Of a stretch of 64,000 nt of DNA, positions 13,538-53,229 are shown piece by piece. Origin of the DNA: an uncultured Alphaproteobacteria bacterium (GTDB lineage: Bacteria; Pseudomonadota; Alphaproteobacteria; RF32; CAG-239); assembly GCA_944391395.1 (NCBI GenBank), contig CALXTI010000001.1, forward strand, positions 146,065 to 210,064, read 5' to 3'. The notes beneath the pieces are model-generated. The model was not told the DNA's origin, ran no database searches, and saw nothing but the letters and a program-made list of their open reading frames with translations. The position numbers and the translations under genes were made by a program. Numbering within the stretch: position 1 is the first letter of the stretch; each line of letters starts with the position of its first letter.

Positions 13538-14380
13538 TCAATTACACTTCCAGCCACCGGTCTCTCCTGTTTGGCAACAGCGATTTGTGCTGGTGCTACC
13601 GCAAGATCCACCCCATCCAGATGGTGTTGGTGCATTGCTTCCCATGCAAACGGTATCGCAATTATATAGGTCACAGGCATCCATGGCATCCCAATTACAC
13701 AGCCTATTGTAATAACATGTTTTACGTGTGTCGCCTAAATATACAGAGTAGGATTTGTAAATAGAACCAGAGCCTGCGCTGCTAGAAGCATATCCATAAT
13801 CGCGGCAAGTTTTAGCCGTGCATTTACCCATCGGTGTGTCGCCGGAGTAGCATCCTTCATATTTCCAGCCGCTTGGGTGAGAGCCGTTTCCGCAATCATT
13901 AACGCTGGCATATTGGGCATTGTATCCGACACAATCTTTGGCAATGCATTTGCCGCAGGTAACGGTTCCGCCCAAACTGTTGGAAACGATGGTTGTTTCC
14001 ACTTTCCAGCCTTCCGGATGGCTGCCGCTGCCGCAATCTGCTACCGAAGTCAAATTCTCGGTAAAGCCTTCCGGACAAAGCGCCTTACTTTCAGCACAAA
14101 GCGTATATGACCTGTCGGTTAAACAAGTTACAATGTTGCCGCACCAGGAAGATTTGTCATCGGTGGTAAAACCGAGCGCTTCGCAGCTGGGTTGAATACA
14201 TTTCTTATAACTTTCGTCAAACGGGCAATATAAATATCCATCGTCGGCACAATTCGCATCGTCGGTTTGACTAAACCCCAAAGCAGCGCAATCCGGCAAA
14301 ACTTCGCAGTTAACCTGAGCCTTGACCGGAAAAGCGGCGGCGGTTGCTAAAAGTATACTCAGAAAACTGATTTTAGGCAT
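13538..14380 (-). CDS. Secreted cysteine-rich modular protein (paralog family member B)
   Basis: 280 aa. Signal peptide MPKISFLSILLATAAAFPVKAQV. Modules CAALGFSQTDDANC..YLYCPFDESYKKC and CEALGFTTDD, and twice GSGSHP.GWK...GKC.AK.C, shared with the 8336 and 14390 proteins. Confidence 0.6.
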   Translation of the reverse strand: MPKISFLSILLATAAAFPVKAQVNCEVLPDCAALGFSQTDDANCADDGYLYCPFDESYKKCIQPSCEALGFTTDDKSSWCGNIVTCLTDRSYTLCAESKALCPEGFTENLTSVADCGSGSHPEGWKVETTIVSNSLGGTVTCGKCIAKDCVGYNAQYASVNDCGNGSHPSGWKYEGCYSGDTPMGKCTAKTCRDYGYASSSAGSGSIYKSYSVYLGDTRKTCYYNRLCNWDAMDACDLYNCDTVCMGSNAPTPSGWGGSCGSTSTNRCCQTGETGGWKCN

Positions 14381-14389
14381 TGTTTACTC

Positions 14390-14854
14390 CTATCTTAAAA
14401 GGCATTTAACTTTGGTTTTGCTGGCAGGGCATTTTAAATATTCCCGGCAATTTCCGACGTCATCGGTGTAGCCCAACGCAGCACAACGTTCGGCGTCGGT
14501 TACCAGTTCGTGCAGCAAACCGTTCCAACAGGTTTCGCGGTTGTAATAACCGTCTTCACAAAGGGCAATGCTGCATTCATAACAGATTAAGTCATGATAT
14601 TCAACCTGAATACAAGAATATCCGTCACTTGATTTTAGCGGTGCGCTGTAGTAGCGCCCGTCTTCACAGGTGTATTGTTTGCACCATTTGTAAGAACTGT
14701 CAAACGGGCAGGTGATGTAGCCTTCCGTGCAGGTGATGTTTTGTTTGTAGCCTAATTCGGCGCATGAGGGGCGGTCAATGCAATCTTGTCCGCAAACCTG
14801 GGCGGAAACATTGAAAGGAAGAAGTAGCAATGACAACAAAAGGATATTTTTCAT
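14390..14854 (-). CDS. Secreted cysteine-rich protein (paralog family member C)
   Basis: 154 aa. Signal peptide MKNILLLSLLLLPFNVSAQ. Modules CAELGYKQNITC..YITCPFDSSYKWC and CAALGYTDDVGNC. Confidence 0.6.
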   Translation of the reverse strand: MKNILLLSLLLLPFNVSAQVCGQDCIDRPSCAELGYKQNITCTEGYITCPFDSSYKWCKQYTCEDGRYYSAPLKSSDGYSCIQVEYHDLICYECSIALCEDGYYNRETCWNGLLHELVTDAERCAALGYTDDVGNCREYLKCPASKTKVKCLLR

Positions 14855-22604: not shown

Positions 22605-24386
22605 TTAAAAAATTCCGCTTTGCTTTTCAAAACCGGAAGCCTGCATTTCATAAAATTTGTAATAGGCGCCTTTTTTCTCAAGCAATTCCCGATGTTTGCC
22701 GGTTTCCACGATTTTGCCTTTGTCCATCACTACCAAACGGTCCATTTCGTTTAAGGTAGAAAGCCGGTGGGCGATGGCAATCACGGTTTTGCCTTTCATC
22801 AGGCTTTTGAGAGAACGTTGAATGTAACGTTCGCTTTCGCTGTCTAAAGCAGATGTCGCCTCGTCTAAAATCAAAATCGGGGCGTTTTTCAAAATTGCCC
22901 GCGCAATCGCGATACGTTGTCGCTCGCCGCCGGAAAGCATGACGCCGCGTTCGCCGACTTTGCTCTGATATCCGTTGGGCAGGCTCATAATAAAATCATG
23001 AATATAAGCTTTTTTGGCGGCGGCTATGACTTGTCGGTCGTTTGCCTTGGGATTGCCGTAACGGATGTTTTCCATGATGGTGCGGTTAAACAAAGTGTTT
23101 TCTTGCGGAATGACGGCGATGTTTTTGCGTAGGCTCTCTTGTGTTACGTCGGCGATATCTTGTCCGCTGATTAAGATTTTACCTTTTTGCAAATCGTAAT
23201 ATCGGCTTAAAAGTTTAATTAGGGTTGATTTTCCGCTGCCGGAATGGCCGACCAGGCCGACTTTTTCGTTCGGTGCAATATGCAGGCTGAAATTTTTAAA
23301 TAACGGTTTGCCGTCTTTATAATGATAAGTGATTTTATCATAATCAATGCGGTTTTCTTTGACTTTTAAGATTTTAGCGTCAGGCTTGTCCACGACCTCG
23401 TTGGGTATTGCCAACAAGTCAAGTCCGTCTTGAATCGTGCCGTAAACCTGAGCAAAATTACTGGCAAAATAACTCATGTTGCGCACATTGCCAACCAGCG
23501 AGAGCACCAGTGAAATGCACAACACCACATCGGCGACGCTTAAATTATGGCGATACCAAAAATAAAGGATAAGCGCGTATGAAAAAATTGTCATCAAGTC
23601 AAAAATAAACTGTGATACCGTGCGCACGGTTATGTCTTTGTTCATTTCACGTCTTTGTGCCACGGCGGCTTCACGTGCGGCTTTGAAATAAAGCCGTTTT
23701 TCGTAAAAATAATTGGCAAAGCTTTTAACCAGCTGGCTGTTGGTGACGCCGTCCACAAATATGCCGTTGGCGGCGGCGTTTAATTTGGCTTTCATCGCCG
23801 AATAAGGGGTAACCTGTTTGCGAAAATAAACCGCCAAGAGCAAAAAGAACAAGTTGACGCCGCCCAAAATCAGCGCCAGTTTTTTATCAGCCGTACCAAT
23901 AAAGCAAAGGCTCATCACCATTTCTATAATCGGCATGGAAAAACCGAACAAAACGCTGAAGTAAAAATGCTCAACCATATTGATGATGTTGCGCACTTTG
24001 CCGGAGATGTTGCCGGAAAGTTCTTCTTCAAAAAAGCGGGCGGAATGTTTGTGTACCATGACAAACAAATCTTTGGAGACTTTCAGCGTGGCGAACGGTA
24101 CAAAATTTGCTTCCAAAATGCGTCGGAAAAATTCAATGCCGCCGCCGACAAACAATGCCAGCAGCATGTAACTTAAATATTTTATCAGAGTTTGCGCCAC
24201 GTCTTGATAAGCTTTTGCGTCTGAAATAATACCGATTATTTCGGCGGCAATATAGTTTTGCAGCCGCATTATAAAAGCCGCACAGGAAAAAATCAGGACA
24301 AAGGCAATCAGCAGATATTTTGCCTGCATGGCGTACTTCCAAACAAAACGCCATACCGTCAGCCGTTTGCCGCTTGTTATGTTCAA
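22605..24386 (-). CDS. ABC transporter, fused permease/ATP-binding exporter (MsbA-like type I exporter)
   Basis: N-terminal six-helix TMD. Walker A GHSGSGKST, signature LSGGERQRIAIARA, Walker B ILILDEATSALD. Confidence 0.85.
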   Translation of the reverse strand: MNITSGKRLTVWRFVWKYAMQAKYLLIAFVLIFSCAAFIMRLQNYIAAEIIGIISDAKAYQDVAQTLIKYLSYMLLALFVGGGIEFFRRILEANFVPFATLKVSKDLFVMVHKHSARFFEEELSGNISGKVRNIINMVEHFYFSVLFGFSMPIIEMVMSLCFIGTADKKLALILGGVNLFFLLLAVYFRKQVTPYSAMKAKLNAAANGIFVDGVTNSQLVKSFANYFYEKRLYFKAAREAAVAQRREMNKDITVRTVSQFIFDLMTIFSYALILYFWYRHNLSVADVVLCISLVLSLVGNVRNMSYFASNFAQVYGTIQDGLDLLAIPNEVVDKPDAKILKVKENRIDYDKITYHYKDGKPLFKNFSLHIAPNEKVGLVGHSGSGKSTLIKLLSRYYDLQKGKILISGQDIADVTQESLRKNIAVIPQENTLFNRTIMENIRYGNPKANDRQVIAAAKKAYIHDFIMSLPNGYQSKVGERGVMLSGGERQRIAIARAILKNAPILILDEATSALDSESERYIQRSLKSLMKGKTVIAIAHRLSTLNEMDRLVVMDKGKIVETGKHRELLEKKGAYYKFYEMQASGFEKQSGIF

Positions 24387-24402: not shown

Positions 24403-27400
24403 TTAAAAGCTATACTTTAAGCCGGCATTATATACCATATTATCATTATGTTCAAGCAGGCGCATGATTTCAGCATACACATTCCAGCCATTGAATTGAT
24501 AGTCGGTTTTCAAACTGATGACGCCGCGGCTGCGGGAATTGTCATAACCTGCAATTTCGTACAGGCCGTTCATGCCGGCGAACCGCGCGTTGATGTTTTG
24601 GTAGGCATCGTCATTTAGCTCGTAATAATACATGGCGCCGGCCTTTAAGTTGAGTTTCCCTTTAGCGCCAAAATCCGCTGCTTTGGAAAGGTAAGCGCCT
24701 AAGCCGGCTTCGGCTGAGAACATATTTTTGGCCTTAACCGAAATTCCGCCATCTTCGGCAAAGTCATCTTGATACATGCCGCTTAAGTTTATTTCTGCCG
24801 TCGGTTCAATATTGATACCGGAAGCTTGTTTTTTAAGGTAAATGCGGTTGTTCAAACCGTAGTAATAAGCTTTGAGGTCGGCCGTATGCTTTTTGGCATC
24901 GTCATAACGCTCATAATCACCGTCGCTAAATCCGACGTATGGTATAATCAGCGCGCCCCAACGCTCATAATCAAACCAATAAGGGTTGTAAACCTCAAAT
25001 AAATTATCATCGCGGTTGACGCCGTTGTCAAAATCAGTATCGACGCGGTAAACGCCCAACCCGATACCGTAACGGAAATTGTTGTTGATTTTTTTATCAA
25101 ACAAGCCGCTGAAGCCAAATAGACGCTCTTCATAACCGCTGACGCCGTCGTGCGCTTTGATGTCGTGATAATAATTGTCGGAAACAACGCTTACGCGTTC
25201 ATCTTTTTCGGAGGCGTTGTTTTGCATTAAATCAGCCATAGTGCGGTTGATGTGGCGCAGTCTCGCAAAATTTTGGTAAGCAAACGCCGGTACAAAATTT
25301 GTTCCTAATGTTTCTGCGACCACATTATTGAGTTTTGTTGTGTCTTCCGCGGTTTTGAATGTGTCAAACACATCGATTCGGTTGCCTTGTTGATAGTTGT
25401 TTTCAAGATATGAGGCCAGATTTTTATTTGCCATCAGTTTGTTGAAATCATAACGCGTCATCGCAATTTTATCACCGATCATTTCAGCGGCAAACATAGC
25501 GCTGTCGGAAGCGGCGGTCGCATTGTTTTCTTCCGCTTCAATCACGCGGCTTTCGTAGTAGTCATCATTGCTGCCGGTGGTCAGGTCTGCACCGCCATAC
25601 AATGTTCCGCTGACACTGCCGGTTTTGATTATGGAGTTTTTGCCGGCGACAGTCTTGCTTTTTTCATCAGCCAGAGCGTCTAAATTTAAGCTGTCTTCAG
25701 CTTCTAAAACGCCGAGATTGTAAAATTTTGCGCCGTTGGTCAAAGCAAATGCTTGCGCTCCGGCAGATTCCGTATCATCAGACAATGTACCGCCGTTTAT
25801 GGTCTCGGTTTCTTGGCTGCCGCTTCCGCTTACGGTGATAGTGCCTTGATTAACGATAACGGATTTTGAGCCGTTGGCGTACATGCCGACCGCGTTTGTG
25901 CCGCTGACGGTGATGGCGCCGCGGTTGATAAGTTTGACATAATTATCGTTTACGCCGTCCACATAACCGTCGGCAAACATGCCGGTACTTTCTTTGCCGC
26001 CGGTTAATGTGATGCTTCCCCGATTTTCAAATCCTTCTTCACCGGTTCCGGTAGCGTAAACCCCGTATTGATTATCACCGATTAAAGTGATGTTGCCTTC
26101 ATTGTATCCGGTTGCGGTTTTTTCAAGATAAATCCCGACCCGGCCGGATGCGCCGGCAGAACGATCATTTATTTTGCCGGTTGAGGAATTGATGACTTGG
26201 CCGGAATCGGCGTACATGCCTATGCCGTCTTTTATGTCGATGGATATGGTGCCGTTGTTGGTTAACTTTGCATTGTTTTGTCCCATCATGCCGATGCCCA
26301 TGTATCCGGAAATGTTAATCACGAAATCGTTTATAATCTCAGCTAAGCTTCCGTCAGCCAGCATTCCTGTGGCGTTTTCCGTTTGCGCTTCAAGCGTTCC
26401 TTTGTTGATAAGTTTGCTGAGGTGATTGCTGCCGTTGGCGTACATGCTGACGGCATTTTCTGAATCGATATTGATGCTGCCGCGGTTTTCAAATCCGTCG
26501 GCAGATGTGCCTTCGGCATATATACCGACGCCGTCCGCAAAACCGGTGATTGTAATGCTGCCTTCGTTGTAACCACCCGCATCACCGGTAAGATAAATGC
26601 CAAAAGCTTTGGATGACTGTTGGTTTTCTCCTTCGGTTTCTGTGGCGGTCAAATTGAGCGCGCTGCTGTTGATAACCGTATTGCCGTTACCGTTTGATTC
26701 AATGCCTTTCAGATTGACGGCACCGGTTAAATCAATCGTACCGTTGTTGGTAAACGAAACGGATTGACCGTTGAGCTGCACACCGGCAATTTTGTCGGGA
26801 TAATCTATGTCGATGCTGTTGTTTAAAGTGGCGTCGACGTAATTGCGGTCGATGACAAGACCTTTTATTTGCGGATCATCGCTTTCTTCTAAGGTATGCA
26901 TCAACGCTTTTATGTTGTTAACGCTCAAAGAACTGCGCTTGTCGGCCGAAGCCTCATCATTGTACCAATCGGTATAGTGCAAAACCGCTCCTCCCGGAAA
27001 GCGTTCGGCATAGATCGTACCGCTGTATTGGTCAACGTTTGTTATGTCGCCGACAATAAAATTATCCTGATAACGCGAATTGAGCTGAAGTACGGAATGT
27101 TGGCCGCCGGTGTTGTTTATAATGCTATCGATACTTTTAAAATGAACATTACTTAAATCAACCGTGCCGTTGTCTTTATATGAATAGTACGACAGATAAT
27201 ACGCTTCGATTTGCCCGGAATTTTCAAATTCTTTGGTGCGTATCTGATAGGTTTTTAAGGTGCCGCGATTGATGACGCTTTCAAGGTAGCCGGTTTTGTT
27301 TTCATCGGCAATATGTCCTTCAGTACTGCCTAAAGTGCCGATTTCGGCAACTCCTCCTTCTTCATTAACAAACGTGCCGTATTCGGGTCTGGATTCGTAT

Positions 27401-29634
27401 CCGGACAAAGCGCCTATAAACATGTTGCCGCTGTTGTGTGTTTCGCTGATTTCTCCGATGTTGACGTCAAAGACGCCGCCAGCCAAATTGTTGAGGATTG
27501 CAGCTCCCATATCGGCTTCGGCGCCGGTCAGCGTGCCGGCGTTGTTGATGGTGGAGCCATATGCCTCAATGTTGCCGTTAAGCGTTGCGCCGGATTGCAC
27601 GTTTAAGATGCTTTCACCAAGGTTGACGGAATAAAAATAGCCGCCGATTCCGGAAATTTGATAGTCGATGTTTGCGTATTGGTCGATAATTGAATGTTGG
27701 GCGACCAGACCGCCGGCAACAAAATTCGGGAAACTGCTTTCATAATACTGGCTGTTCATGTCCACATAAATATCGCCATGATTGGTAAGCTTCACGCCGT
27801 CAATTAATAAAGCCTGCATGGTGGCGTTTCCGGTCATGGTTATTTTACCGCTGTTTTCAGCCTTGATTAAAGTGCTTTCGTCTTCTTTGGAAACGTTTTC
27901 GCCTTTGTTAAGCACGCTTAATCCCATGGCACGGTAGCGGTCTCGATAAGCATTGACATCTTCATGATTGAGATTTGCAAAATAGGTTTCATCAAAACTG
28001 AAGTTAACATCTATGGCGCCGGAATTGTTAACTTCTATTTTATCAAACTCGTTTAACGGGATTGCCGAGACATTCATTCCCGCCACGGTCATATATTTAT
28101 CTTTTCCGGAAGTGTTTCCTTTTTCAATACGCTCATCGGTTGTCAGTTTGAGCGTAATGTTCCCCTCATTGTTCCAACTATTGATCAATTCTTTTTCAAT
28201 GTCATAACTGCGATGTAATCCGCCGGTCGACCTTCCGTCAAGCGTTAAGTAAATACCCAGGTTGGCTGTTGAGGGTTCAATATAATTATAGTCATGAGCT
28301 CCGTTAAGAGAATTATCTTGGATAACAAAGGTCGCCGTTCCGGTTAAGGTAATGTCGCCGGAATTGTAAACAACGCCATTGCCAAGCAGCATGATGCCTA
28401 TATTGTCCCGACCGTTCAGGTAAACCGTGCCGTTGTTTTCCAAAGTATGGAGGCTCTCCAGTTTGCTGTTTATAACACTTCCCAAAGTTTCGGTCAGAAT
28501 ACCGTAGCTGTCGTCTGCCGTGATGGTGATGGTGCCTGAATTTGAAATGGCTCCCACGCCGGAATCAATGCTTGTAAAAAATGTTTTATATGTGCTGGGT
28601 TCATGCGTTGCCATAATACCGACGCCATCGTATCCATCTGCCAAAACAATGTTTCCGGTATTGTCGACTCCGCCGGAGGACGCATATATTCCGCCCCAAG
28701 TTTCGCTTTTATTTGTTCCCGTGTTGGTCAAATTTTCAGAGTTATCGGTTCCGTTGTCGGTTTCGATGACAAAATTTGTTTCAGGTTCGACTTCGGTAAT
28801 GCAAGATTCACAACCGCCGCAAGAATTGTAACTTGAACAAACTTGTCCGGCGGTGCAGGTAAGGTCGGTGTAGCAACCTTCGGCGCAAGGGTTTTCTTTA
28901 CAAACATCGATTTGTTCGCATCTTTCGCAGCCGCCGCAACTATTTTGTTCGGCGCAAGTGTAACCTTCGGTGCAGGTAAGGTTGGTGTAGCAACCTTCGG
29001 CACAAGGATTTTCTTCACACGTTTCAACCGGCGGATCATTGCAGACAAGACAGTTACCGTTTTCATCCTCTTCGGCGCAACCGAATTCGCAGCTTAATCC
29101 CGGAGTTTCGGCCGTTTCATCACCACCGCCGCCGCCACCGCCGCCACCGTTTAAAAGTAGCGCTATGCCGCCGCCGGCAAGAAGCAAACCGGCCAAAGCC
29201 CATTTTTTGGAATTTGATTTTTCCATGTTATAAACCGGCGGCACATAATCGGCACTTTGCCATGTCGCACCGGCTTGCACGGCGTCTGATTCTATAAAAG
29301 CCTGATAATAGGGAATTTTCCATGTGCAAGGATGGTCAGGGTTGGCGCCCGCTTGACGGAAGGCATTATAAGCCGTGGCATTGCGCCGTTTGGCGGCAAC
29401 ACAAAGTCCCGTGTCGCCGTATGCGTTGGTGGCGTTAATGTTCATGCCGCGATGCACCGCTTCAAGCAACAATCTGACATCGCCTCTGGCCGCGACGGCA
29501 TACATCTCGTTAAAGTTGCGCGGCGCCAAACGATATGAACTCGCCGCCGCCGGCGATACAACCGTGCTGATTATCAGCGCCGGCATAAGAATAAAACTGA
29601 TAACTTGTCTGAAAAACCGTCCGGACATGATCAT
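24403..29634 (-). CDS. Large autotransporter (type Va) adhesin-like protein with repetitive beta-helical passenger
   Basis: 1743 aa. Sec signal peptide. An ankyrin-like repeat follows near the N-terminus (YGDTGLCVAAKRRNATAYNAFRQAGANPD). Hydrophobic plus poly-Gly linker, then tandem Cys-rich ~40-aa module. Dozens of GxITLTG/GxxxxGMYAxG passenger repeats. C-terminal beta-barrel ending ...YNAGLKYSF. Confidence 0.75.
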   Translation of the reverse strand: MIMSGRFFRQVISFILMPALIISTVVSPAAASSYRLAPRNFNEMYAVAARGDVRLLLEAVHRGMNINATNAYGDTGLCVAAKRRNATAYNAFRQAGANPDHPCTWKIPYYQAFIESDAVQAGATWQSADYVPPVYNMEKSNSKKWALAGLLLAGGGIALLLNGGGGGGGGGDETAETPGLSCEFGCAEEDENGNCLVCNDPPVETCEENPCAEGCYTNLTCTEGYTCAEQNSCGGCERCEQIDVCKENPCAEGCYTDLTCTAGQVCSSYNSCGGCESCITEVEPETNFVIETDNGTDNSENLTNTGTNKSETWGGIYASSGGVDNTGNIVLADGYDGVGIMATHEPSTYKTFFTSIDSGVGAISNSGTITITADDSYGILTETLGSVINSKLESLHTLENNGTVYLNGRDNIGIMLLGNGVVYNSGDITLTGTATFVIQDNSLNGAHDYNYIEPSTANLGIYLTLDGRSTGGLHRSYDIEKELINSWNNEGNITLKLTTDERIEKGNTSGKDKYMTVAGMNVSAIPLNEFDKIEVNNSGAIDVNFSFDETYFANLNHEDVNAYRDRYRAMGLSVLNKGENVSKEDESTLIKAENSGKITMTGNATMQALLIDGVKLTNHGDIYVDMNSQYYESSFPNFVAGGLVAQHSIIDQYANIDYQISGIGGYFYSVNLGESILNVQSGATLNGNIEAYGSTINNAGTLTGAEADMGAAILNNLAGGVFDVNIGEISETHNSGNMFIGALSGYESRPEYGTFVNEEGGVAEIGTLGSTEGHIADENKTGYLESVINRGTLKTYQIRTKEFENSGQIEAYYLSYYSYKDNGTVDLSNVHFKSIDSIINNTGGQHSVLQLNSRYQDNFIVGDITNVDQYSGTIYAERFPGGAVLHYTDWYNDEASADKRSSLSVNNIKALMHTLEESDDPQIKGLVIDRNYVDATLNNSIDIDYPDKIAGVQLNGQSVSFTNNGTIDLTGAVNLKGIESNGNGNTVINSSALNLTATETEGENQQSSKAFGIYLTGDAGGYNEGSITITGFADGVGIYAEGTSADGFENRGSINIDSENAVSMYANGSNHLSKLINKGTLEAQTENATGMLADGSLAEIINDFVINISGYMGIGMMGQNNAKLTNNGTISIDIKDGIGMYADSGQVINSSTGKINDRSAGASGRVGIYLEKTATGYNEGNITLIGDNQYGVYATGTGEEGFENRGSITLTGGKESTGMFADGYVDGVNDNYVKLINRGAITVSGTNAVGMYANGSKSVIVNQGTITVSGSGSQETETINGGTLSDDTESAGAQAFALTNGAKFYNLGVLEAEDSLNLDALADEKSKTVAGKNSIIKTGSVSGTLYGGADLTTGSNDDYYESRVIEAEENNATAASDSAMFAAEMIGDKIAMTRYDFNKLMANKNLASYLENNYQQGNRIDVFDTFKTAEDTTKLNNVVAETLGTNFVPAFAYQNFARLRHINRTMADLMQNNASEKDERVSVVSDNYYHDIKAHDGVSGYEERLFGFSGLFDKKINNNFRYGIGLGVYRVDTDFDNGVNRDDNLFEVYNPYWFDYERWGALIIPYVGFSDGDYERYDDAKKHTADLKAYYYGLNNRIYLKKQASGINIEPTAEINLSGMYQDDFAEDGGISVKAKNMFSAEAGLGAYLSKAADFGAKGKLNLKAGAMYYYELNDDAYQNINARFAGMNGLYEIAGYDNSRSRGVISLKTDYQFNGWNVYAEIMRLLEHNDNMVYNAGLKYSF

Positions 29635-38183: not shown

Positions 38184-38849
38184 ATGAAATATATTAATGA
38201 AAACGGCCGTTCCATGGTCGAAATGCTGGGCGTTTTGGCGATTATCGGCGTCTTGTCCGTCGGTGGTATCGCCGGTTATTCCAAAGCCATGAACAAATAC
38301 AAAATCAACAAAACCAACGATCAGGTTTCAATGTTGGTCGCCAACATCCGCACCCTGTTCTCCTCGCAGAACAACTATGAAGGTTTGAATAATGCCCAGG
38401 CGATTAAATTCGGTGTGGTCCCGAATGATATGTATGAATCAAGCACAAGCAGTACGGTAACTGTTGATGATATAAAAAATGCTTTTGGTGGCGCGGTCTT
38501 TATTAACGCGAGCGGTACGGATGCTGCGCATCTAACTTCGGCGTTTATCGTTGAATATCAAAACATTCCGGAAGAAGCCTGCGTCAACATTTTGACCTCG
38601 GACTGGGGTTCCGGTCAGGGGTCCGGCTTGATTGCTATCGGTGTTGAGGCAACTGCAACCGTTGCTGCTGGAGGTTCTGCTTCAGCGGGAGATTTGTTGA
38701 ATGATATCTATGTCGGCGATGCCGGTGCTTCCGGTGATGATGGTTCTATTGGTACGCCGGGTGGTACGGCACAGTCCGCACCGTTTGCGGTCAGCGAAGC
38801 GATTGATGCTTGCGGTACGGCTAATACCATTTATTGGAAGTACTATTAA
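38184..38849 (+). CDS. Type IV pilin-like protein (class III signal peptide, G/A/S-rich C-terminus)
   Basis: N-terminus MKYINENGRSMVEMLGVLAIIGVLSVGGIAGY, with the prepilin cleavage motif G|RSMVE (Glu at +5) and a hydrophobic helix. C-terminal low-complexity Gly/Ala/Ser/Asp region. Confidence 0.55.
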   Translation: MKYINENGRSMVEMLGVLAIIGVLSVGGIAGYSKAMNKYKINKTNDQVSMLVANIRTLFSSQNNYEGLNNAQAIKFGVVPNDMYESSTSSTVTVDDIKNAFGGAVFINASGTDAAHLTSAFIVEYQNIPEEACVNILTSDWGSGQGSGLIAIGVEATATVAAGGSASAGDLLNDIYVGDAGASGDDGSIGTPGGTAQSAPFAVSEAIDACGTANTIYWKYY

Positions 38850-47622: not shown

Positions 47623-47646
47623 AGCCCGCAACAAGCGGGCTTCTTT
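47623..47646 (+). terminator. Rho-independent terminator after fadL-like gene
   Basis: GAGCCCGC-AACAA-GCGGGCTTCTTT. Confidence 0.5.
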
Positions 47647-47788
47647 AATGAAATTTTTACTCATGCGGGCGTATAAAGACATTGTTACAGAATTATGAAT
47701 ATTTACCCGGACGCTTCATAAAAACTGGAAAACGAGGCGTCTTTGTGCTATGATACATTAATAAAACGGTGTAAGGTGAGTTAAAGAT

Positions 47789-48580
47789 ATGTATTTATGG
47801 GTTGTTTTGGCAACATTTATTGTTGCATTGTATTCATATAATTTGTCGGTGCGTTCCGACTTAGACCGGGTTTTTGCCGAAACCAAGGCAAGCGTTGTCA
47901 TTGCCAAATTCAGAGCATTGCATAACGGCGTGAAAGATTATTTTAACTCACAGGCGCCTTCTAAAACGGGTTTAACCCATGTGACATATTATCCCGGCGA
48001 CGGAGTCAATATTACCTCGCAAAGCGAAACGGAAGAGGATGTTTTGACACTTGATGATGTGGTGGATTATCTGCCGGTCGGTTATGCCAAGGCGGGCGAT
48101 ACGCTTGAAGATATAGCGACTTTGACCGGCGGCGGAGAGATTGTGAGTAAAGTTTTTTGTTTTGAGGAAGGCGACACCACAAAACAATGTGTTTCAAGCA
48201 TAGACGGCAGTTGCTGCAGCAATGATTGTTTGGAAGACGGCAAATGTTCCGGTATTTATGCGGTTTCGTTTGCCGCCATGCCTTCACGCTGGATAAACAA
48301 AGAAACACTCAACCCAAACGCCGATATGAAAATGGCGGTGGCAAAAGTCCGCGGTTACGGCGAGACTTTCGGCTATACGCAAAAAACGGACGGAAAACTT
48401 GTTTTAAGCGGCGGCCATATGGTGCAGGAATATGACGCTTCCGGCAGTCCGGTCGGTGATAAAAAATTTGAATATCTTGAAATATATAAAGCAATTCAAG
48501 ATGATGAGGATTTCAAGCGAATCGGCTGCGACCAAGATGACAAACATTGTTTGTTCGCCATTCAGCAGATTTATGGTTAG
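47789..48580 (+). CDS. Hypothetical protein with N-terminal hydrophobic anchor, immediately upstream of the giant pilin-like gene
   Basis: 263 aa with N-terminal MYLWVVLATFIVALYSY helix and a Cys cluster (CCSNDCLEDGKCSG). There are 10 nt between its stop and the next gene's SD. Confidence 0.4.
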   Translation: MYLWVVLATFIVALYSYNLSVRSDLDRVFAETKASVVIAKFRALHNGVKDYFNSQAPSKTGLTHVTYYPGDGVNITSQSETEEDVLTLDDVVDYLPVGYAKAGDTLEDIATLTGGGEIVSKVFCFEEGDTTKQCVSSIDGSCCSNDCLEDGKCSGIYAVSFAAMPSRWINKETLNPNADMKMAVAKVRGYGETFGYTQKTDGKLVLSGGHMVQEYDASGSPVGDKKFEYLEIYKAIQDDEDFKRIGCDQDDKHCLFAIQQIYG

Positions 48581-48590
48581 GAGAAAACAC

Positions 48591-51500
48591 ATGAAAACGA
48601 AATCTAAAACCTTTTTACATAAAATAAGCCAGGCCGGCAGTATGATGGTTGAGGCCATGGCCATGCTGGCTTTGATTTCTTTGGTGACGCCGACGCTGTA
48701 TAAAAAATCCGCGGAGCGGACAACCGAGTTGCAAGATATCAACACGGCAACGCATCTGCGCACGATTATGAAGGCAGTGGACAGTTATGTGTCGGCAAAC
48801 TATCAGAGCTTGCTTGAAGATCAGCTGAAATCGGAAGATGCTTCCATGAGCATAGATTTATCAAGTGAACAAGACCAGATTTCCAAAGGTATTCATGACT
48901 ATTTTCCTTATGGTTACAGCTTTGACCAGGTCAAGAACTTCGGCGCGCCGAAAGTTGTTTTGAAACGACAGGGTATGTCTATCACCTCGTTTGTGGAACT
49001 GCCGAAAATGACCGACATCGGCGAAATGCGCGCGGCGCGGATTGCCTCCATGGTCGGCAGCAACGGCGGTTATGTCAATGCTGACGGTGATGCCCAAGGT
49101 GTGGGCGGCGTTTGGAGTTTGGACAGTTCCGAGCTTAATTCTTTGGGACTGGGTAACACACAGGGCTCAATCGTGGTGGCTTCGTCAGACGCCATTAACT
49201 CGGCAACATCCGGTGCGTTGGAAAATGAAAAATATCTGCAAAGAACGGAAGTCGAATCTACCGACCAACTGTGGCGCAACACGATGGTGACGGATCTTTA
49301 CATGGGCGGCGTGCAAGATGCCGATGCCATGCATAAAATTTTGGGTGTTGACCAGTTGATTTTGGGCAGCACAAATTGGGAAGATTATGACGCCGATTTG
49401 GTTTTGACCGATGAAAACGGTTATGAAGGGTCGGCATGGCTGGCAGGTACGTTTTCGGCTTTGAGCGACAGCTTTACGGTAAGAGGCACGGCCGACGCGC
49501 CGGAATTGGCATTTGGTGCCGGTGATGGCGATTTATTGTATGTCAATGATATGGAAGCTTCTATTTGGGGCAATGCCGATGATGGTAATATCGGCTTGGC
49601 TTTGCATAAAGGGACAAACGAAATGGAAACCGATTATGCGACGACAATCCGTAACAATTTGGACGTCAGCGGCAACACAAAAGTGGCAAGCGGCGGCACC
49701 GATACTTCTTTTGAGGCCGGTCCGGACGGATCGTATATCACGGCTGATGCCAATCAGGTCAGACTGCTGAACAACACCGTGGAGGTTTTGCGCAATGCCG
49801 GAACCGGAGGCGCCTCCACCACCAATGTGAACACGACGCAGACAAACATCAGCGGCGATACGACAATCGGCACGGCGCCGGACACCGGCAGAGGCGGTCA
49901 GGTGGTAACCAATCCGAAACTCAGCGTGCAGGGCGGCGGATATGTCCGAAATGATTTGGAAGTCGGCGGCGCGCTTTATGCAAACGAATTTAACACTTTG
50001 GAATTGCATGCCGGCGGAACGGATTTTAACGATAAAGATGCCCGTTGGCTGCATGCAACCTCTGACGGCGTGACCGTGACAAATCCTAATAATATAACAG
50101 ATCCGATTTTGCAAATAACCAAAGGCACAGATACGCGGATGTTCGGTCCGGATGGCGATAACGGCGGGATGGGCAGTGCCGTTATTTTGGGCAGTGAAAG
50201 AGGCCAGTTACGAGGTGTTGATGAGGCCTCCTTGTATACCACGGAAACGGATGGCGTGGTAAACATTCAAGATGGCGCGCTTATATTGGATAATAAGCCC
50301 GGGGCTACCGGCGGCAATACGGTGGATATTGATGCTGATGTTACGACAGTTAGAGACGGTGTCTTCCGAGTTACGAAAGGAGCATCGGTGGGTGGCGAGT
50401 ATACCGTTACCTCAGAAGCATTATATGTCGATCCGACAGGTGCCGGCGAAGTTATAGCTAATGCCGACGAAACGACGGTGCGAATGGAAGGCACTGACGG
50501 AGTCTTTCAGGTTGTACAAAATTCGGGCGAAGGGGATAAAGGACTGTTGAAAGTCGGGCCGGATTTGGATGGTACTTCCGCTGCGACCGCTACGGTTGAC
50601 AATCGTTATTTCAGATTGTCGGACACTTCGGTAGTTGTGGATCCGGATGCCTCTACAAACAAGATATTGGAAGTCAATTTGGATTATAATGACACCACGG
50701 ACTGGGAAAACAAGGGCAGTGTGTATATTCGGCGCGGCGCCGTTGAGCTCGAAAGCCCTTCAGGCACCGGATATGACGCCGATTCCGGTTATGGCTATGT
50801 TGAGATGGGGCGTTTTGTTTCCAACGCCATTGATACAATCGGGGATACCATAGAAGGTACGGAAATTGCAAAGCCGGTATATGCTACCGATGGAGTTAAT
50901 GCATTTCCAGGCGAGAAGTATGACCGTTACATGGTAAACCCGGCTTATACTTCGGTGATGCATGATATCAAGCTGACCACCCGCGGCGGCGCGCGTTTGA
51001 GCGATATTTTGCCGGATTTCATTAATAAAGGGATTTATGTGGTTAATAACAGTTACCGCGATACGGGAATTGATTTGAATAGAATTACCGCATCGGGCGA
51101 TGGTAAAAAGCAAATAACTCTGACAGATAATAATAACTATGATGATACGGCTTCCGGCACTTTAAGCGGAGCAGCGCAATGGGGCTCGCCGTTCATGGGT
51201 GTGGTGCCGGCGCCGCAATGTCCGCCGGGATATGCCCGGGTGATTACCATCACCCCGGCCGGTTTCCAGATGGCACAGGCCGGTCAGATTGTGCGGACAC
51301 CGCACGACGTGTCAGATGATTACAATAACAATCGTTTTGTGGTTGATGAGCATTCAGAAATCAACAAATTAGGACAGATTGTTGAGAGTACGTTAAGTTC
51401 TTCGACGACGGTAACCGGCGCTCAGTATACGCCGACGAGCATTCGGGATCAAGCGGGCAATCCACAGCCGTTGTATTATCTCGGTCACGCCTCTGAGCCG

Positions 51501-51989
51501 ACAGTACGAATAAAGATTGGTGATAGTCCAGAAGAACCGTATTCACCGCAACCGATTTATTTCCAACAAAGTACCTGGCTGCGAAGCAAGGTGCAGCCGC
51601 AGGCCGAAGGCGTCGCCGGAAGTTGTAACCCGAGCGCCGGCAGCGGAGAAGGCTGCGGAAGCGGTTTTCTGGGTTGGTCGGCGATTATGGGCTTTATTTA
51701 TCCGTCAAGTTTTTACGGAGATTTAATTGATAAAATAAAAGGTACGGCCGATGATGATGACGGAAATGTTTACTGGAACGTGTTTCCGGTTCGGCGCAAT
51801 ACCTTGGAAGCTTACGCAACGGTTTATTGCTACTTTGACCGGACAAATTTATACCAATCCGGACAAGATGAAAGATACGTTGATCCGTATGATCAGTTGA
51901 ACAACTTTAGATTCGGGTATACAAAACCTGATTCGGATTATGTCAAACGGTTGAATGACCCGACGTTGAAATATACCGAACCATGGTAA
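48591..51989 (+). CDS. Giant (~1130 aa) protein with type IV pilin-like class III N-terminus, putative pilus-associated adhesin
   Basis: N-terminus MKTKSKTFLHKISQAGSMMVEAMAMLALISLVTPTLY, with G|SMMVE (Glu +5) and a hydrophobic helix. A very long Gly/Thr/Asp/Asn-rich beta-type region follows. Start set at the ATG (48591) behind AGGAGAAAACAC. Confidence 0.55.
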   Translation: MKTKSKTFLHKISQAGSMMVEAMAMLALISLVTPTLYKKSAERTTELQDINTATHLRTIMKAVDSYVSANYQSLLEDQLKSEDASMSIDLSSEQDQISKGIHDYFPYGYSFDQVKNFGAPKVVLKRQGMSITSFVELPKMTDIGEMRAARIASMVGSNGGYVNADGDAQGVGGVWSLDSSELNSLGLGNTQGSIVVASSDAINSATSGALENEKYLQRTEVESTDQLWRNTMVTDLYMGGVQDADAMHKILGVDQLILGSTNWEDYDADLVLTDENGYEGSAWLAGTFSALSDSFTVRGTADAPELAFGAGDGDLLYVNDMEASIWGNADDGNIGLALHKGTNEMETDYATTIRNNLDVSGNTKVASGGTDTSFEAGPDGSYITADANQVRLLNNTVEVLRNAGTGGASTTNVNTTQTNISGDTTIGTAPDTGRGGQVVTNPKLSVQGGGYVRNDLEVGGALYANEFNTLELHAGGTDFNDKDARWLHATSDGVTVTNPNNITDPILQITKGTDTRMFGPDGDNGGMGSAVILGSERGQLRGVDEASLYTTETDGVVNIQDGALILDNKPGATGGNTVDIDADVTTVRDGVFRVTKGASVGGEYTVTSEALYVDPTGAGEVIANADETTVRMEGTDGVFQVVQNSGEGDKGLLKVGPDLDGTSAATATVDNRYFRLSDTSVVVDPDASTNKILEVNLDYNDTTDWENKGSVYIRRGAVELESPSGTGYDADSGYGYVEMGRFVSNAIDTIGDTIEGTEIAKPVYATDGVNAFPGEKYDRYMVNPAYTSVMHDIKLTTRGGARLSDILPDFINKGIYVVNNSYRDTGIDLNRITASGDGKKQITLTDNNNYDDTASGTLSGAAQWGSPFMGVVPAPQCPPGYARVITITPAGFQMAQAGQIVRTPHDVSDDYNNNRFVVDEHSEINKLGQIVESTLSSSTTVTGAQYTPTSIRDQAGNPQPLYYLGHASEPTVRIKIGDSPEEPYSPQPIYFQQSTWLRSKVQPQAEGVAGSCNPSAGSGEGCGSGFLGWSAIMGFIYPSSFYGDLIDKIKGTADDDDGNVYWNVFPVRRNTLEAYATVYCYFDRTNLYQSGQDERYVDPYDQLNNFRFGYTKPDSDYVKRLNDPTLKYTEPW

Positions 51990-51996
51990 CAAAAAG

Positions 51997-52022
51997 AAAA
52001 GGGGATGAAAATCCCCTTTTTT
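51997..52022 (+). terminator. Rho-independent terminator
   Basis: AAAAGGGGAT-GAAA-ATCCCCTTTTTT. Confidence 0.7.
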
Positions 52023-52194
52023 CATATTTGACAAGTGCTTGTTTTTTTATTCTGACGACTGCCGTGTTTTGTTTTTTTCCGGACGGGGCAAGGCTAGCAA
52101 ACTTGTTTATATGTTAGAAATTTTAGCTTGCAAATTTGTGAGCTTGTCTTATATTTTGCATAGATTTTGTGGTAATTTTTTTAAGGAGAAAATT

Positions 52195-53229
52195 ATGCCT
52201 TTGATTTCTATGCGTCAAATCCTTGACCATGCCGCTGAGAACGGTTACGGCGTTCCGGCTTTCAATATTAACGATATGGAGCAGATTATTGCCGTTTTGC
52301 AGGCTGCGCGCAAGGTTAATGCGCCGGTGATTTTGCAAACCTCGACCGGCGCGCGCAAGTTTGCCGGCGACCCGATGATTCGTCATATGGTCAAGGGCGG
52401 AATCGAAATGTTTCCCGAATTGCCGATTTGCTTGCACCAAGATCACGGTTCGTCGGTTGATATTTGCCAATCGGCTTTGGTGAACGGTTATTCTTCGGTG
52501 ATGATGGATGGTTCTCTGGAGGCGGACGGTAAAACCCCGTCTTCTTATGAATACAATGTTCATGTGACCAAAGAGGTGGTGGCGCGCGCTCATGCTGTCG
52601 GCGCTTCGGTGGAAGGCGAGTTGGGTGTTATCGGCTCTTTGGAAACCGGCAAAGGGGATAAAGAAGACGGTCATGGCGCCGAAGGTGTGATTGATAAGAA
52701 ACGTTTGGTAACTGATCCGGACGAGGCTGCGCGCTTTGTGGCTGAAACCAATGTGGACGCTTTGGCGGTTGCGGTCGGCACCTCGCACGGGGCATATAAA
52801 TTCACCCGCAAGCCGGACGGTGATATTTTGGCAATCGACGTGATTGAAAAAATTCATCAAAAACTGCCGAACACGCATATGGTGATGCACGGTTCGTCTT
52901 CGGTTCCGCAAGAATTGCAGGATTTAATCAATGCATACGGCGGCACCATTCCGCAAACTTACGGTGTGCCGGTGGAAGAAATTGTCCGCGGCATTAAATC
53001 CGGCGTGCGCAAGGTCAATGTCGATACCGACTGCCGTATGGCCATCACCGGAGCCATCCGCCGGTTGTTTAGCGAAAATCCGAAAGAGTTTGATCCTCGC
53101 AAATACTTAAAGCCGGCAATTGAAGAAATGCAAAAGGTGTGCGAAGCACGTTACATTGCTTTCGGCGCGGCCGGGCATGCCGATAAAATCAAAGTTATTC
53201 CGCTTCCCGAGATGGCAAAGCGCTATTAA
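52195..53229 (+). CDS. fba: Fructose-1,6-bisphosphate aldolase, class II
   Basis: [24 protein letters not shown]... with Zn-ligand His motifs (HQDHGS, HGSSSVP). Start set at the ATG after the AGGAGAAAATT SD rather than the long upstream ORF extension. Confidence 0.9.

Follow-up and report, generated by a model that had tools for sequence, protein, structure and literature searches.

In a stretch of 64,000 nucleotides from the genome of an uncultured Alphaproteobacteria bacterium (contig CALXTI010000001.1 of assembly GCA_944391395.1, positions 146,065 to 210,064; this whole stretch is referred to here as the window), two adjacent genes at positions 47789-51989 encode a protein of 263 residues and, immediately downstream, one of 1132 residues, here called the partner and the giant. 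An original prediction, made from the DNA sequence without database searches, had described the giant as a protein with a type IV prepilin N-terminus, suggestive of a pilus-displayed adhesin of exceptional size. Sequence and structure comparisons support the pilin assignment and narrow it, pointing to a distant relationship of the giant to PilV, an adhesive minor pilin of the type IVb thin pili of IncI plasmids. The elements of the locus are as follows.

47726-47754, + strand: candidate sigma-70-like promoter upstream of the partner gene, TGGAAA-17-TATGAT with a TG extension (consensus scan only)
47789-48580, + strand: partner gene, 263 aa (open reading frame and conservation)
48579-48583, + strand: Shine-Dalgarno sequence AGGAG of the giant gene, overlapping the TAG stop codon of the partner gene, 7 nt before the ATG (read from the sequence)
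48591-48638, + strand: class III (prepilin) leader of the giant, residues 1-16, MKTKSKTFLHKISQAG, with predicted cleavage after Gly16
48639-49370, + strand: pilin module of the giant, residues 17 to ~260 (Pfam, tblastn, hhalign and AlphaFold)
49371-50690, + strand: variable beta stalk rich in Gly, Thr, Asp and Asn, residues ~261-700 (composition, conservation and AlphaFold)
50922-51056, + strand: nearly invariant segment of 45 residues, 778-822, DRYMVNPAYTSVMHDIKLTTRGGARLSDILPDFINKGIYVVNNSY (column identity)
51168-51986, + strand: conserved C-terminal domain, residues ~860-1132 (conservation profile and AlphaFold)
51997-52020, reported on the - strand by the terminator scan: hairpin AAAAGGGGATTTTCATCCCCTTTT, 8 nt after the stop codon of the giant gene

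The open reading frame obtained by mechanical calling, 48432-51989, covers the giant gene. The ATG at 48591 is taken as the real start, because an AGGAG precedes it by 7 nt and because, in a set of 80 non-identical orthologues (921-1413 aa, down to ~30% overall identity), every start falls 10-17 residues before a conserved glycine; the longer version starting at 48432 was rejected, since it runs into the partner gene and lacks conservation. The giant gene accordingly occupies 48591-51989 on the + strand, stop codon included, and its product of 1132 aa agrees with the length of about 1130 aa given originally. The partner gene ends 10 nt before the ATG of the giant, and its prediction as a 263-aa protein with an N-terminal hydrophobic anchor was not only correct but can be extended, as the two genes are strictly conserved operon partners: in 77 of the 80 loci the partner gene immediately precedes the giant gene, and the remaining three lack the 5' end of the giant gene or the sequence upstream of it. 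The flanks of the pair in the window are a FadL-like porin gene and a gene for fructose-bisphosphate aldolase (Fba). A hairpin followed by a T-run at ~47625-47650 comes after the FadL-like gene and is followed by the promoter candidate. The hairpin at 51997-52020 separates the giant gene from the aldolase gene downstream, and its flanking A-run and T-run suggest possible termination on both strands. On the basis of these consensus matches, the promoter-like site and the downstream hairpin bracket both genes, which likely form one transcription unit.

The N-terminus of the giant consists of MKTKSKTFLHKISQAG followed by SMMVEAMAMLALISLVTPTLY, with glycine at position -1 and glutamate at +5 relative to the predicted cleavage site, after which the sequence begins SMMVE and continues through a stretch of ~21 hydrophobic or uncharged residues. 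Both Gly-1 and Glu+5 are invariant in the 80 orthologues, the leaders of which are basic and 10-17 aa long, and the consensus beyond the basic leader reads G-[STG]-[LMI]-[ML]-[IV]-E-A-[ML]-A-[ML]-L-x-L-[IV]-x-x-V-T-P-x-[LM]-Y-[KR]-K. An invariant charged residue in a membrane helix, five positions from an invariant glycine, is a signature of prepilin processing and filament packing, not of Sec export. In addition, hhalign aligned the leader of the giant with the NG/RSMVEML leader (the slash marks the cleavage site) of the PilS-type pilins of the same clade. Taken together, these sequence patterns identify a class III signal in the giant, with leader cleavage expected after Gly16, and the type IV prepilin N-terminus that had been proposed (Gly at -1, Glu at +5, about 20 hydrophobic residues) is upheld by its retention throughout the orthologue set. 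Neither the Pfam N_methyl model nor TIGR02532 matched the giant, but control PilV proteins mostly fail N_methyl as well, including those of ColIb-P9 and Serratia symbiotica, so that the absence of a match says little against a class III signal.

The full-length giant has no Pfam or NCBIfam match, and the link to PilV emerged only from scans of divergent orthologues and of the isolated N-terminal domain; NCBIfam was not usable as a test of membership, as none of its models recognises even ColIb-P9 PilV. The Pfam model Shufflon_N (PF04917), which describes the N-terminal constant region of PilV, was matched in 5 of 39 divergent orthologues, with 37.2, 33.3 and 28.5 bits for L080, L068 and L063 (cutoff 27.5), and the first 320 aa of the window giant scored just below this cutoff (26.0 bits, E 8.2e-6, residues 51-240 against profile positions 10-186). 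Genuine PilV proteins, used as a control, score 350-621 bits and cover all 324 profile positions. In a tblastn search of the window and 1.74 Mb of loci from the clade, the annotated PilV of S. symbiotica plasmid pSsyis1 (L090) matched ~50 loci over the initial ~240 codons of the giant gene (best E 8e-9; window giant E 2.4e-5). A further alignment was obtained with hhalign, between the profile of the giant N-terminal domain and the same PilV (97.8%, E 1.3e-12, 192 columns; giant 38-256, PilV 35-230); it falls wholly past the hydrophobic segment and includes the motifs MRxxRIAxxxGxxGGY and LYR...N.M.TD..MGG. The pilin module as delineated comprises an α1 helix containing Glu5 (E21) and Pro18 (P34), followed by an α/β head, and the AlphaFold model of the giant has the long N-terminal helix (residues 4-78), α/β head (85-200, at a predicted local distance difference test score, pLDDT, of 80-90) and subsequent beta-rich modules that were to be looked for by structure prediction, with a pTM of 0.37 for the full length. 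These comparisons identify the 1132-aa product, at the sequence level, as a distant member of the PilV family with a PilV-type pilin module at residues 17 to ~260, and the earlier pilin interpretation is thereby refined to homology of residues ~38-256 with the PilV constant region. The giant family is a distant chromosomal branch of PilV-like pilins and not orthologous to PilV, because a full constant region, a shufflon and the context of a plasmid pil operon were all tested for and not found.

Beyond the pilin module, ~870 residues have no detectable relatives outside the family. Within them, residues 261-700 contain 13.4% Gly, 12.0% Thr, 10.5% Asp and 7.7% Asn, combined 44%, as anticipated by the original description of a G/T/D/N-rich sequence after the pilin helix. 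Conservation is lowest in this region (0.3-0.5), indels are numerous, and much of the range in orthologue length is accommodated here; AlphaFold predicts the stalk to be all-beta. Matches to the Pfam family Bactofilin (a beta-helix) were found in the stalks of 7 of 39 orthologues, with a best score of 30.7 bits. The orthologues with Bactofilin or left-handed beta-helix (LbH) matches, at residues ~280-460, are shorter ones of 921-950 aa (L063, L080, L062, L065, L067, L071 and L054). The stalk of the window giant has no Bactofilin or LbH Pfam match, and no convincing internal repeats were detected in it by hhalign. A Foldseek search of BFVD with the giant returned phage tail-fibre-like proteins with E-values down to 3e-6 but with TM scores below 0.13 and root-mean-square deviations of 26-80 Å; homology to tail fibres was rejected on the low TM scores and high deviations, and the matches were retained only as a sign of a fibrous beta structure. 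No relatives of the giant were found in a scan of viral contigs.

Past the stalk, conservation rises sharply at residues 778-822, where column identity is 0.97-0.99 across 82 sequences that share 36% identity on average. AlphaFold confidence is below 50 for residues 768-811, and we read the segment as one that would fit an interaction or oligomerisation surface. Its core, GGARL..SDILPDFINKGIYV (also written GGARL..SDILPDFINKGIY), resembles the GGfyM..WiRsvnnKGIyT motif of the distal constant region of PilV at a level that is not significant (E 0.07); when the C-terminal and middle regions of the giant were compared with a profile of seven PilV sequences, this short GG..NKGIY motif was all that was aligned, with the same E-value of 0.07. 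In the C-terminal domain, Cys877 and Cys1080 are invariant and the end of the protein, RLNDPxLxYxxPW, is conserved. The domain is predicted by AlphaFold to be beta-rich (pLDDT ~65-85), and it has no Pfam match (Shufflon_N included), no match among PDB sequences and no significant fold match. By analogy with PilV, the C-terminal part of the giant may act as an adhesin.

The partner starts with MYLWVVLATFIVALYSYNLSV, a hydrophobic helix that begins at Met1, without a leader and without Glu5. Its N-terminus is always MY[LIVT][WL]; the partners of the longest orthologues (L081 and L084) are longer too, the one in L084 having 305 aa and starting MYLLMLLATF. Six cysteines are conserved and suggest to us, as a feature of the sequence, an oxidising, periplasmic location. 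No Pfam or NCBIfam model matched the partner, a Foldseek search of the PDB gave no significant match and no pilins, and no similarity was detected to PilV or to PilS-type pilins. With the N-terminal domain of the giant, in contrast, hhalign produced a collinear alignment (75%, E 2.5e-5; partner 4-220, giant 16-184), in which the α1-C region, the motif YLPxGY, a beta strand and the motif D.xxA....G.G..GY are shared landmarks, Met1 of the partner falls ~2 residues before the cleavage site of the giant, and leucine occupies the position of Glu5. The AlphaFold model of the partner (pLDDT 85.8, pTM 0.80) consists of helices at residues 2-16 and 23-54 followed by a beta-sheet. The partner is a probable paralogue of the pilin module of the giant that lacks both leader and Glu5, a relationship that these data support but do not prove.

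The giant family is large and has gone unnamed. A profile search of 1.84 billion cluster representatives returned 637 clusters at E <= 1e-3, 291 of them at E <= 1e-30 (clusters at 50% identity), and, apart from a few fragments, the best 150 of these matches consist of family members with lengths of 829-1471 aa, no distant relatives being among them. The longest orthologues in the fetched loci have 1409-1413 aa (L081:9998-14236 and L084:9998-14224), and the library representatives reach 1471 aa. All relatives are unnamed or annotated as 'hypothetical protein' in metagenome-assembled genomes (MAGs) of Alphaproteobacteria, and hundreds are full-length; orthologues of similar length, whose presence in related organisms had been proposed as a check, occur in at least 232 species when one genome per GTDB species is scanned. 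The carrier species are nearly all labelled uncultured Alphaproteobacteria, such as Candidatus Scatocola, the isolate source is gut, rumen or faeces wherever the names state it, and identities within the family range from 93% to ~30%. Three contigs that carry the gene pair (L031, L076 and L078) were deposited in bins named 'Lachnospiraceae bacterium' or 'Bacteroidaceae bacterium', labels that probably reflect mis-binning or mislabelling. Beyond the pair itself nothing is conserved nearby, the flanks elsewhere being ribosomal protein, ftsZ or tRNA-synthetase genes. Across this widespread, uncultured lineage of Alphaproteobacteria from gut and rumen, the family seems to belong to the core genome.

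A gene for a second type of pilin is present in the window, about which the original prediction was silent.

38184-38849, + strand: stand-alone type IVb major pilin of the PilS/bundlin type, 221 aa (Pfam PilS E 3.4e-17, Bundlin E 1.9e-11)

The same gene is matched by a plasmid PilS query in tblastn, and the N-terminus of its product, MKYINENG/RSMVEMLGVLAIIGVLS, has the G-x4-E layout seen in the giant. It is located between a gene for a DUF4143 ATPase and proS, with no assembly genes adjoining, and PilS-type paralogues were found in five more loci (L007, L021, L023, L029 and L030, the last with two copies). This pilin is the likely shaft subunit. The claim that pilus assembly genes are missing from the window thus holds for an ATPase, a secretin, a platform protein and a peptidase. 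A prepilin peptidase candidate was recovered from relatives: a Peptidase_A24 gene (Pfam E 2.7e-16, the sole Pfam match of a product of ~237 aa) shares a contig with an orthologue and lies 3 kb downstream of it (L076:16588-17301, - strand). The peptidase belongs to a family of 714 clusters that is widespread in these MAGs and includes records titled 'prepilin peptidase [Alphaproteobacteria bacterium]'; the window itself and the 10 kb on each side of it yielded no A24 peptidase gene. In three relatives the A24 gene lies within a few kb of groES-groEL (L076:16588-17301, L086:10001-10717 and L087:10001-10723), with no other pilus gene nearby. The original suggestion to look for a peptidase and for a secretin or ATPase elsewhere in the genome has been answered for the peptidase in these relatives, and the refuting condition named at the time, a missing prepilin peptidase, has not overturned the pilin reading; no ATPase or secretin was detected in the 1.74 Mb of clade DNA.

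On the basis of these data, we consider it reasonably probable that the two proteins encoded by the operon at 47789-51989 are pilin-like and belong to a chromosomally encoded type IVb pilus system, and that the giant is a minor pilin or adhesin at the pilus tip. The prepilin would be inserted in the inner membrane via its hydrophobic helix, and the A24 prepilin peptidase of the clade would then remove the 16-residue leader after Gly16. The mature giant, with Ser1 and Glu5, could join, through its α1 helix, the tip of a filament made up of the PilS-type major pilin; the tip is favoured over the shaft because the bulk of a subunit of 1116 residues would prevent packing within the shaft. Displayed on a pilus in this manner, as we infer, the stalk would keep the conserved C-terminal domain off the pilus, and the domain would bind a conserved ligand on the host, in mucus or on other cells. 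The partner would need no peptidase and would most likely pair with the pilin module of the giant in a tip or priming complex, or else hold this module in the membrane prior to assembly. A position of the partner at the very top of the filament would be tolerable without Glu5, because the topmost subunit needs no Glu5, as has been proposed for GspK (PMC8179133).

Several observations weigh against this interpretation. The strong conservation of the C-terminal third is unusual for an adhesin under host selection, and so is the core-genome, housekeeping neighbourhood of the pair in every species. The giants reach only profile positions 186-243 of the 324 in Shufflon_N and do not cover the full constant region. 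The Foldseek search of the PDB with the giant gave no significant match, the pilin TcpB (7w63) appearing with E 1.3 and a probability of 0.07, and a profile search of PDB sequences with the giant gave 0 matches; because no significant PDB fold match exists for the giant or the partner, the pilin fold rests on prediction and sequence homology. Finally, no assembly ATPase, platform protein or secretin was detected in the window and the 1.74 Mb of clade loci, a small and biased sample, with Walker-A and GxGDxK motifs and with tblastn queries comprising Escherichia coli GspD, GspE and GspF and S. symbiotica PilM, PilN, PilO2, PilP, ATPase and PilR; likewise, no assembly gene was present among the Pfam-annotated genes 10 kb past each end of the window or around the three peptidase homologues. 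Because the genes for the pilin, the peptidase and the giant each occur alone amid housekeeping genes, the failure to detect assembly genes is not informative about whole genomes.

Some of these same points would be explained if the pilin-like N-terminus is real but the giant stays anchored in the inner membrane or forms, with the partner, a short periplasmic stub resembling a pseudopilus, with a conserved function in the envelope such as a spanning fibre or tether. The location of the pair amid housekeeping genes without any other conserved neighbour, the lack of assembly machinery near the pair, the orphan pilins or the peptidase, and a C-terminal third and 45-residue segment whose conservation far exceeds what is usual for adhesins are all compatible with such a function, for which the partner, lacking a leader and Glu5, could serve as a permanent membrane anchor. 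Set against it are the invariant Gly-1 and Glu+5, which are hallmarks of processing by the peptidase and of packing in a filament, the presence of a PilS-type major pilin, which is sensible only with a filament, the variable length of the stalk, which is typical of structures that project from the surface, and the fact that the homologue PilV is a component of a pilus (PMC9045228). We regard this alternative as unlikely. Of similar, low probability is a more speculative scheme in which the pair is a self-contained tip module of two pilins and of a new kind: the partner, in effect born mature, would not pass through the prepilin peptidase and would form the cap or the nucleus of the filament, and the 778-822 segment and the C-terminal domain would serve beyond simple adhesion, in oligomerisation, in recognition of a conserved structure of the envelope or host, or in an action independent of the classical pilus machinery.

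Markedly less probable is that the giant has the role of plasmid PilV in the strict sense, that is, a recipient-recognition adhesin on the thin pilus of a conjugative or mobile element that stabilises mating pairs in the gut. The homology of its N-terminal domain to PilV of IncI1 and IncI2 plasmids would agree with that role, as would the importance of TP114 PilV for conjugation in the mouse gut (PMC9045228). However, shufflon repeats are absent, the contexts examined are of the housekeeping kind and showed neither type IV secretion genes nor relaxase or pilN-R genes, the viral contigs held no relatives, and the family is present in at least 232 species at identities from 93% down to ~30%. The picture of a vertically inherited core locus without linked transfer genes already looks largely true. 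The notion that the N-terminal resemblance is fortuitous, and that the giant is a large beta-rich protein secreted by means of an ordinary Sec signal or signal anchor, for which one might cite the failure of N_methyl and TIGR02532 and the empty full-length Pfam and NCBIfam scans, is effectively refuted by the sequence comparisons, as Gly-1 and Glu+5 are kept in 80 of 80 orthologues, genuine PilV proteins fail N_methyl too, and the homology to PilV (hhalign E 1.3e-12) lies in the head domain and not in the hydrophobic part, past which it runs for ~200 residues.

Two side observations concern other genes in the window. A second very large surface protein, of 1743 aa, is encoded at 24403-29634 on the - strand; it has a C-terminal autotransporter beta-domain (PF03797, E 1.8e-20), and its gene adjoins one for an ABC exporter (22605-24386). 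Two adjacent genes on the - strand, at 13538-14380 (280 aa) and 14390-14854 (154 aa), encode Cys-rich proteins with Sec-like N-termini, both with a C..LG[FY] motif near the N-terminus and neither with a Pfam match.

The results bear on several questions. For a family of hundreds of members, so far 'hypothetical protein' in every named record, the analysis provides an identity that can be tested. It places PilV-type pilins outside conjugative plasmids, chromosomally fixed and without a shufflon, and the conserved leaderless partner raises a concrete question as to how a tip complex is assembled. The conserved C-terminal domain may be considered as a candidate factor in colonisation by these commensals.

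Among known systems, PilV of R64, ColIb-P9 and TP114 is the closest. PilV acts as an adhesin whose C-terminal part sets the specificity of binding (PMC9045228), and a binding function would be expected in the C-terminal part of the giant, too. The two share a class III leader ending in Gly, Glu at +5, a homologous α1-C region and head, and co-occurrence with a PilS-type major pilin. The giant is, however, 2.4 times longer (1132 aa versus 428-474 aa), and the match of the giants extends over roughly two-thirds of the constant region, counted from its start, with scores of 15-37 bits compared with 350-621 for true PilV proteins. The giant gene is chromosomal and lies among housekeeping genes, whereas pilV belongs to a pilI-V operon next to pilS and the peptidase gene (reference operon L090). 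Its stalk and C-terminal domain are unrelated to those of PilV, and it has a conserved, leaderless partner gene. In plasmid PilV the 3' end of the gene lies within a shufflon, which consists of inverted sfx repeats served by an Rci recombinase. No shufflon or other repeats were found in 47700-52300, no recombinase gene was present among the window open reading frames scanned (part of which were annotated), and the orthologues have one fixed, conserved C-terminus.

CofB (~520 aa) and TcpB (~420 aa) are large minor pilins of the type IVb class and, like the giant as modelled, have a pilin module followed by beta-rich domains; they differ in having no detectable sequence similarity to the giant, in being encoded within their pilus operons and in being much shorter. 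CofB, from the CFA/III pilus of enterotoxigenic E. coli, is described as a tip-exposed trimer (PMC8179133), and TcpB initiates assembly and retraction of the toxin-coregulated pilus of Vibrio cholerae (PMC5207764). The tip adhesin PilY1/PilC of type IVa pili resembles the giant in size (~1000-1200 aa), in the pilus-associated adhesin role proposed for the giant and in a modular N-terminal part; PilY1 is not a pilin (PMC8179133), and the Pfam model of its beta-propeller does not match the giant, either over the full length or in the C-terminal region.

For the partner, the comparison is with GspK and other tip (pseudo)pilins that likewise lack Glu5. GspK retains a cleavable prepilin leader. The partner, in contrast, starts at Met1 with a hydrophobic helix, and no sequence similarity between the two was detected. 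GspK has been proposed to sit at the very tip together with other minor pilins (PMC8179133).

The giant can be accommodated in the established concept of modular pilins, in which a pilin module acts as the carrier of a grafted functional module and is expected at the tip; examples are PilB and PilC of Streptococcus sanguinis and Thermus ComZ with its beta-solenoid module (Raynaud et al. 2021, PMC8179133). With a pilin module at residues 17 to ~260 and another ~870 residues that include at least two conserved blocks, the giant corresponds to this definition. The differences are that the giant family, at 829-1471 aa, has no match to the N-methyl motif and that its grafted modules match no known domain. 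To be counted in the 2021 survey, a modular pilin had to carry the InterPro N-methyl motif, and the most extreme case given there had 860 residues (PMC8179133). Because the standard N-methyl signatures miss the giants, the family escapes surveys of this type, and its members exceed the largest modular pilin cited there.

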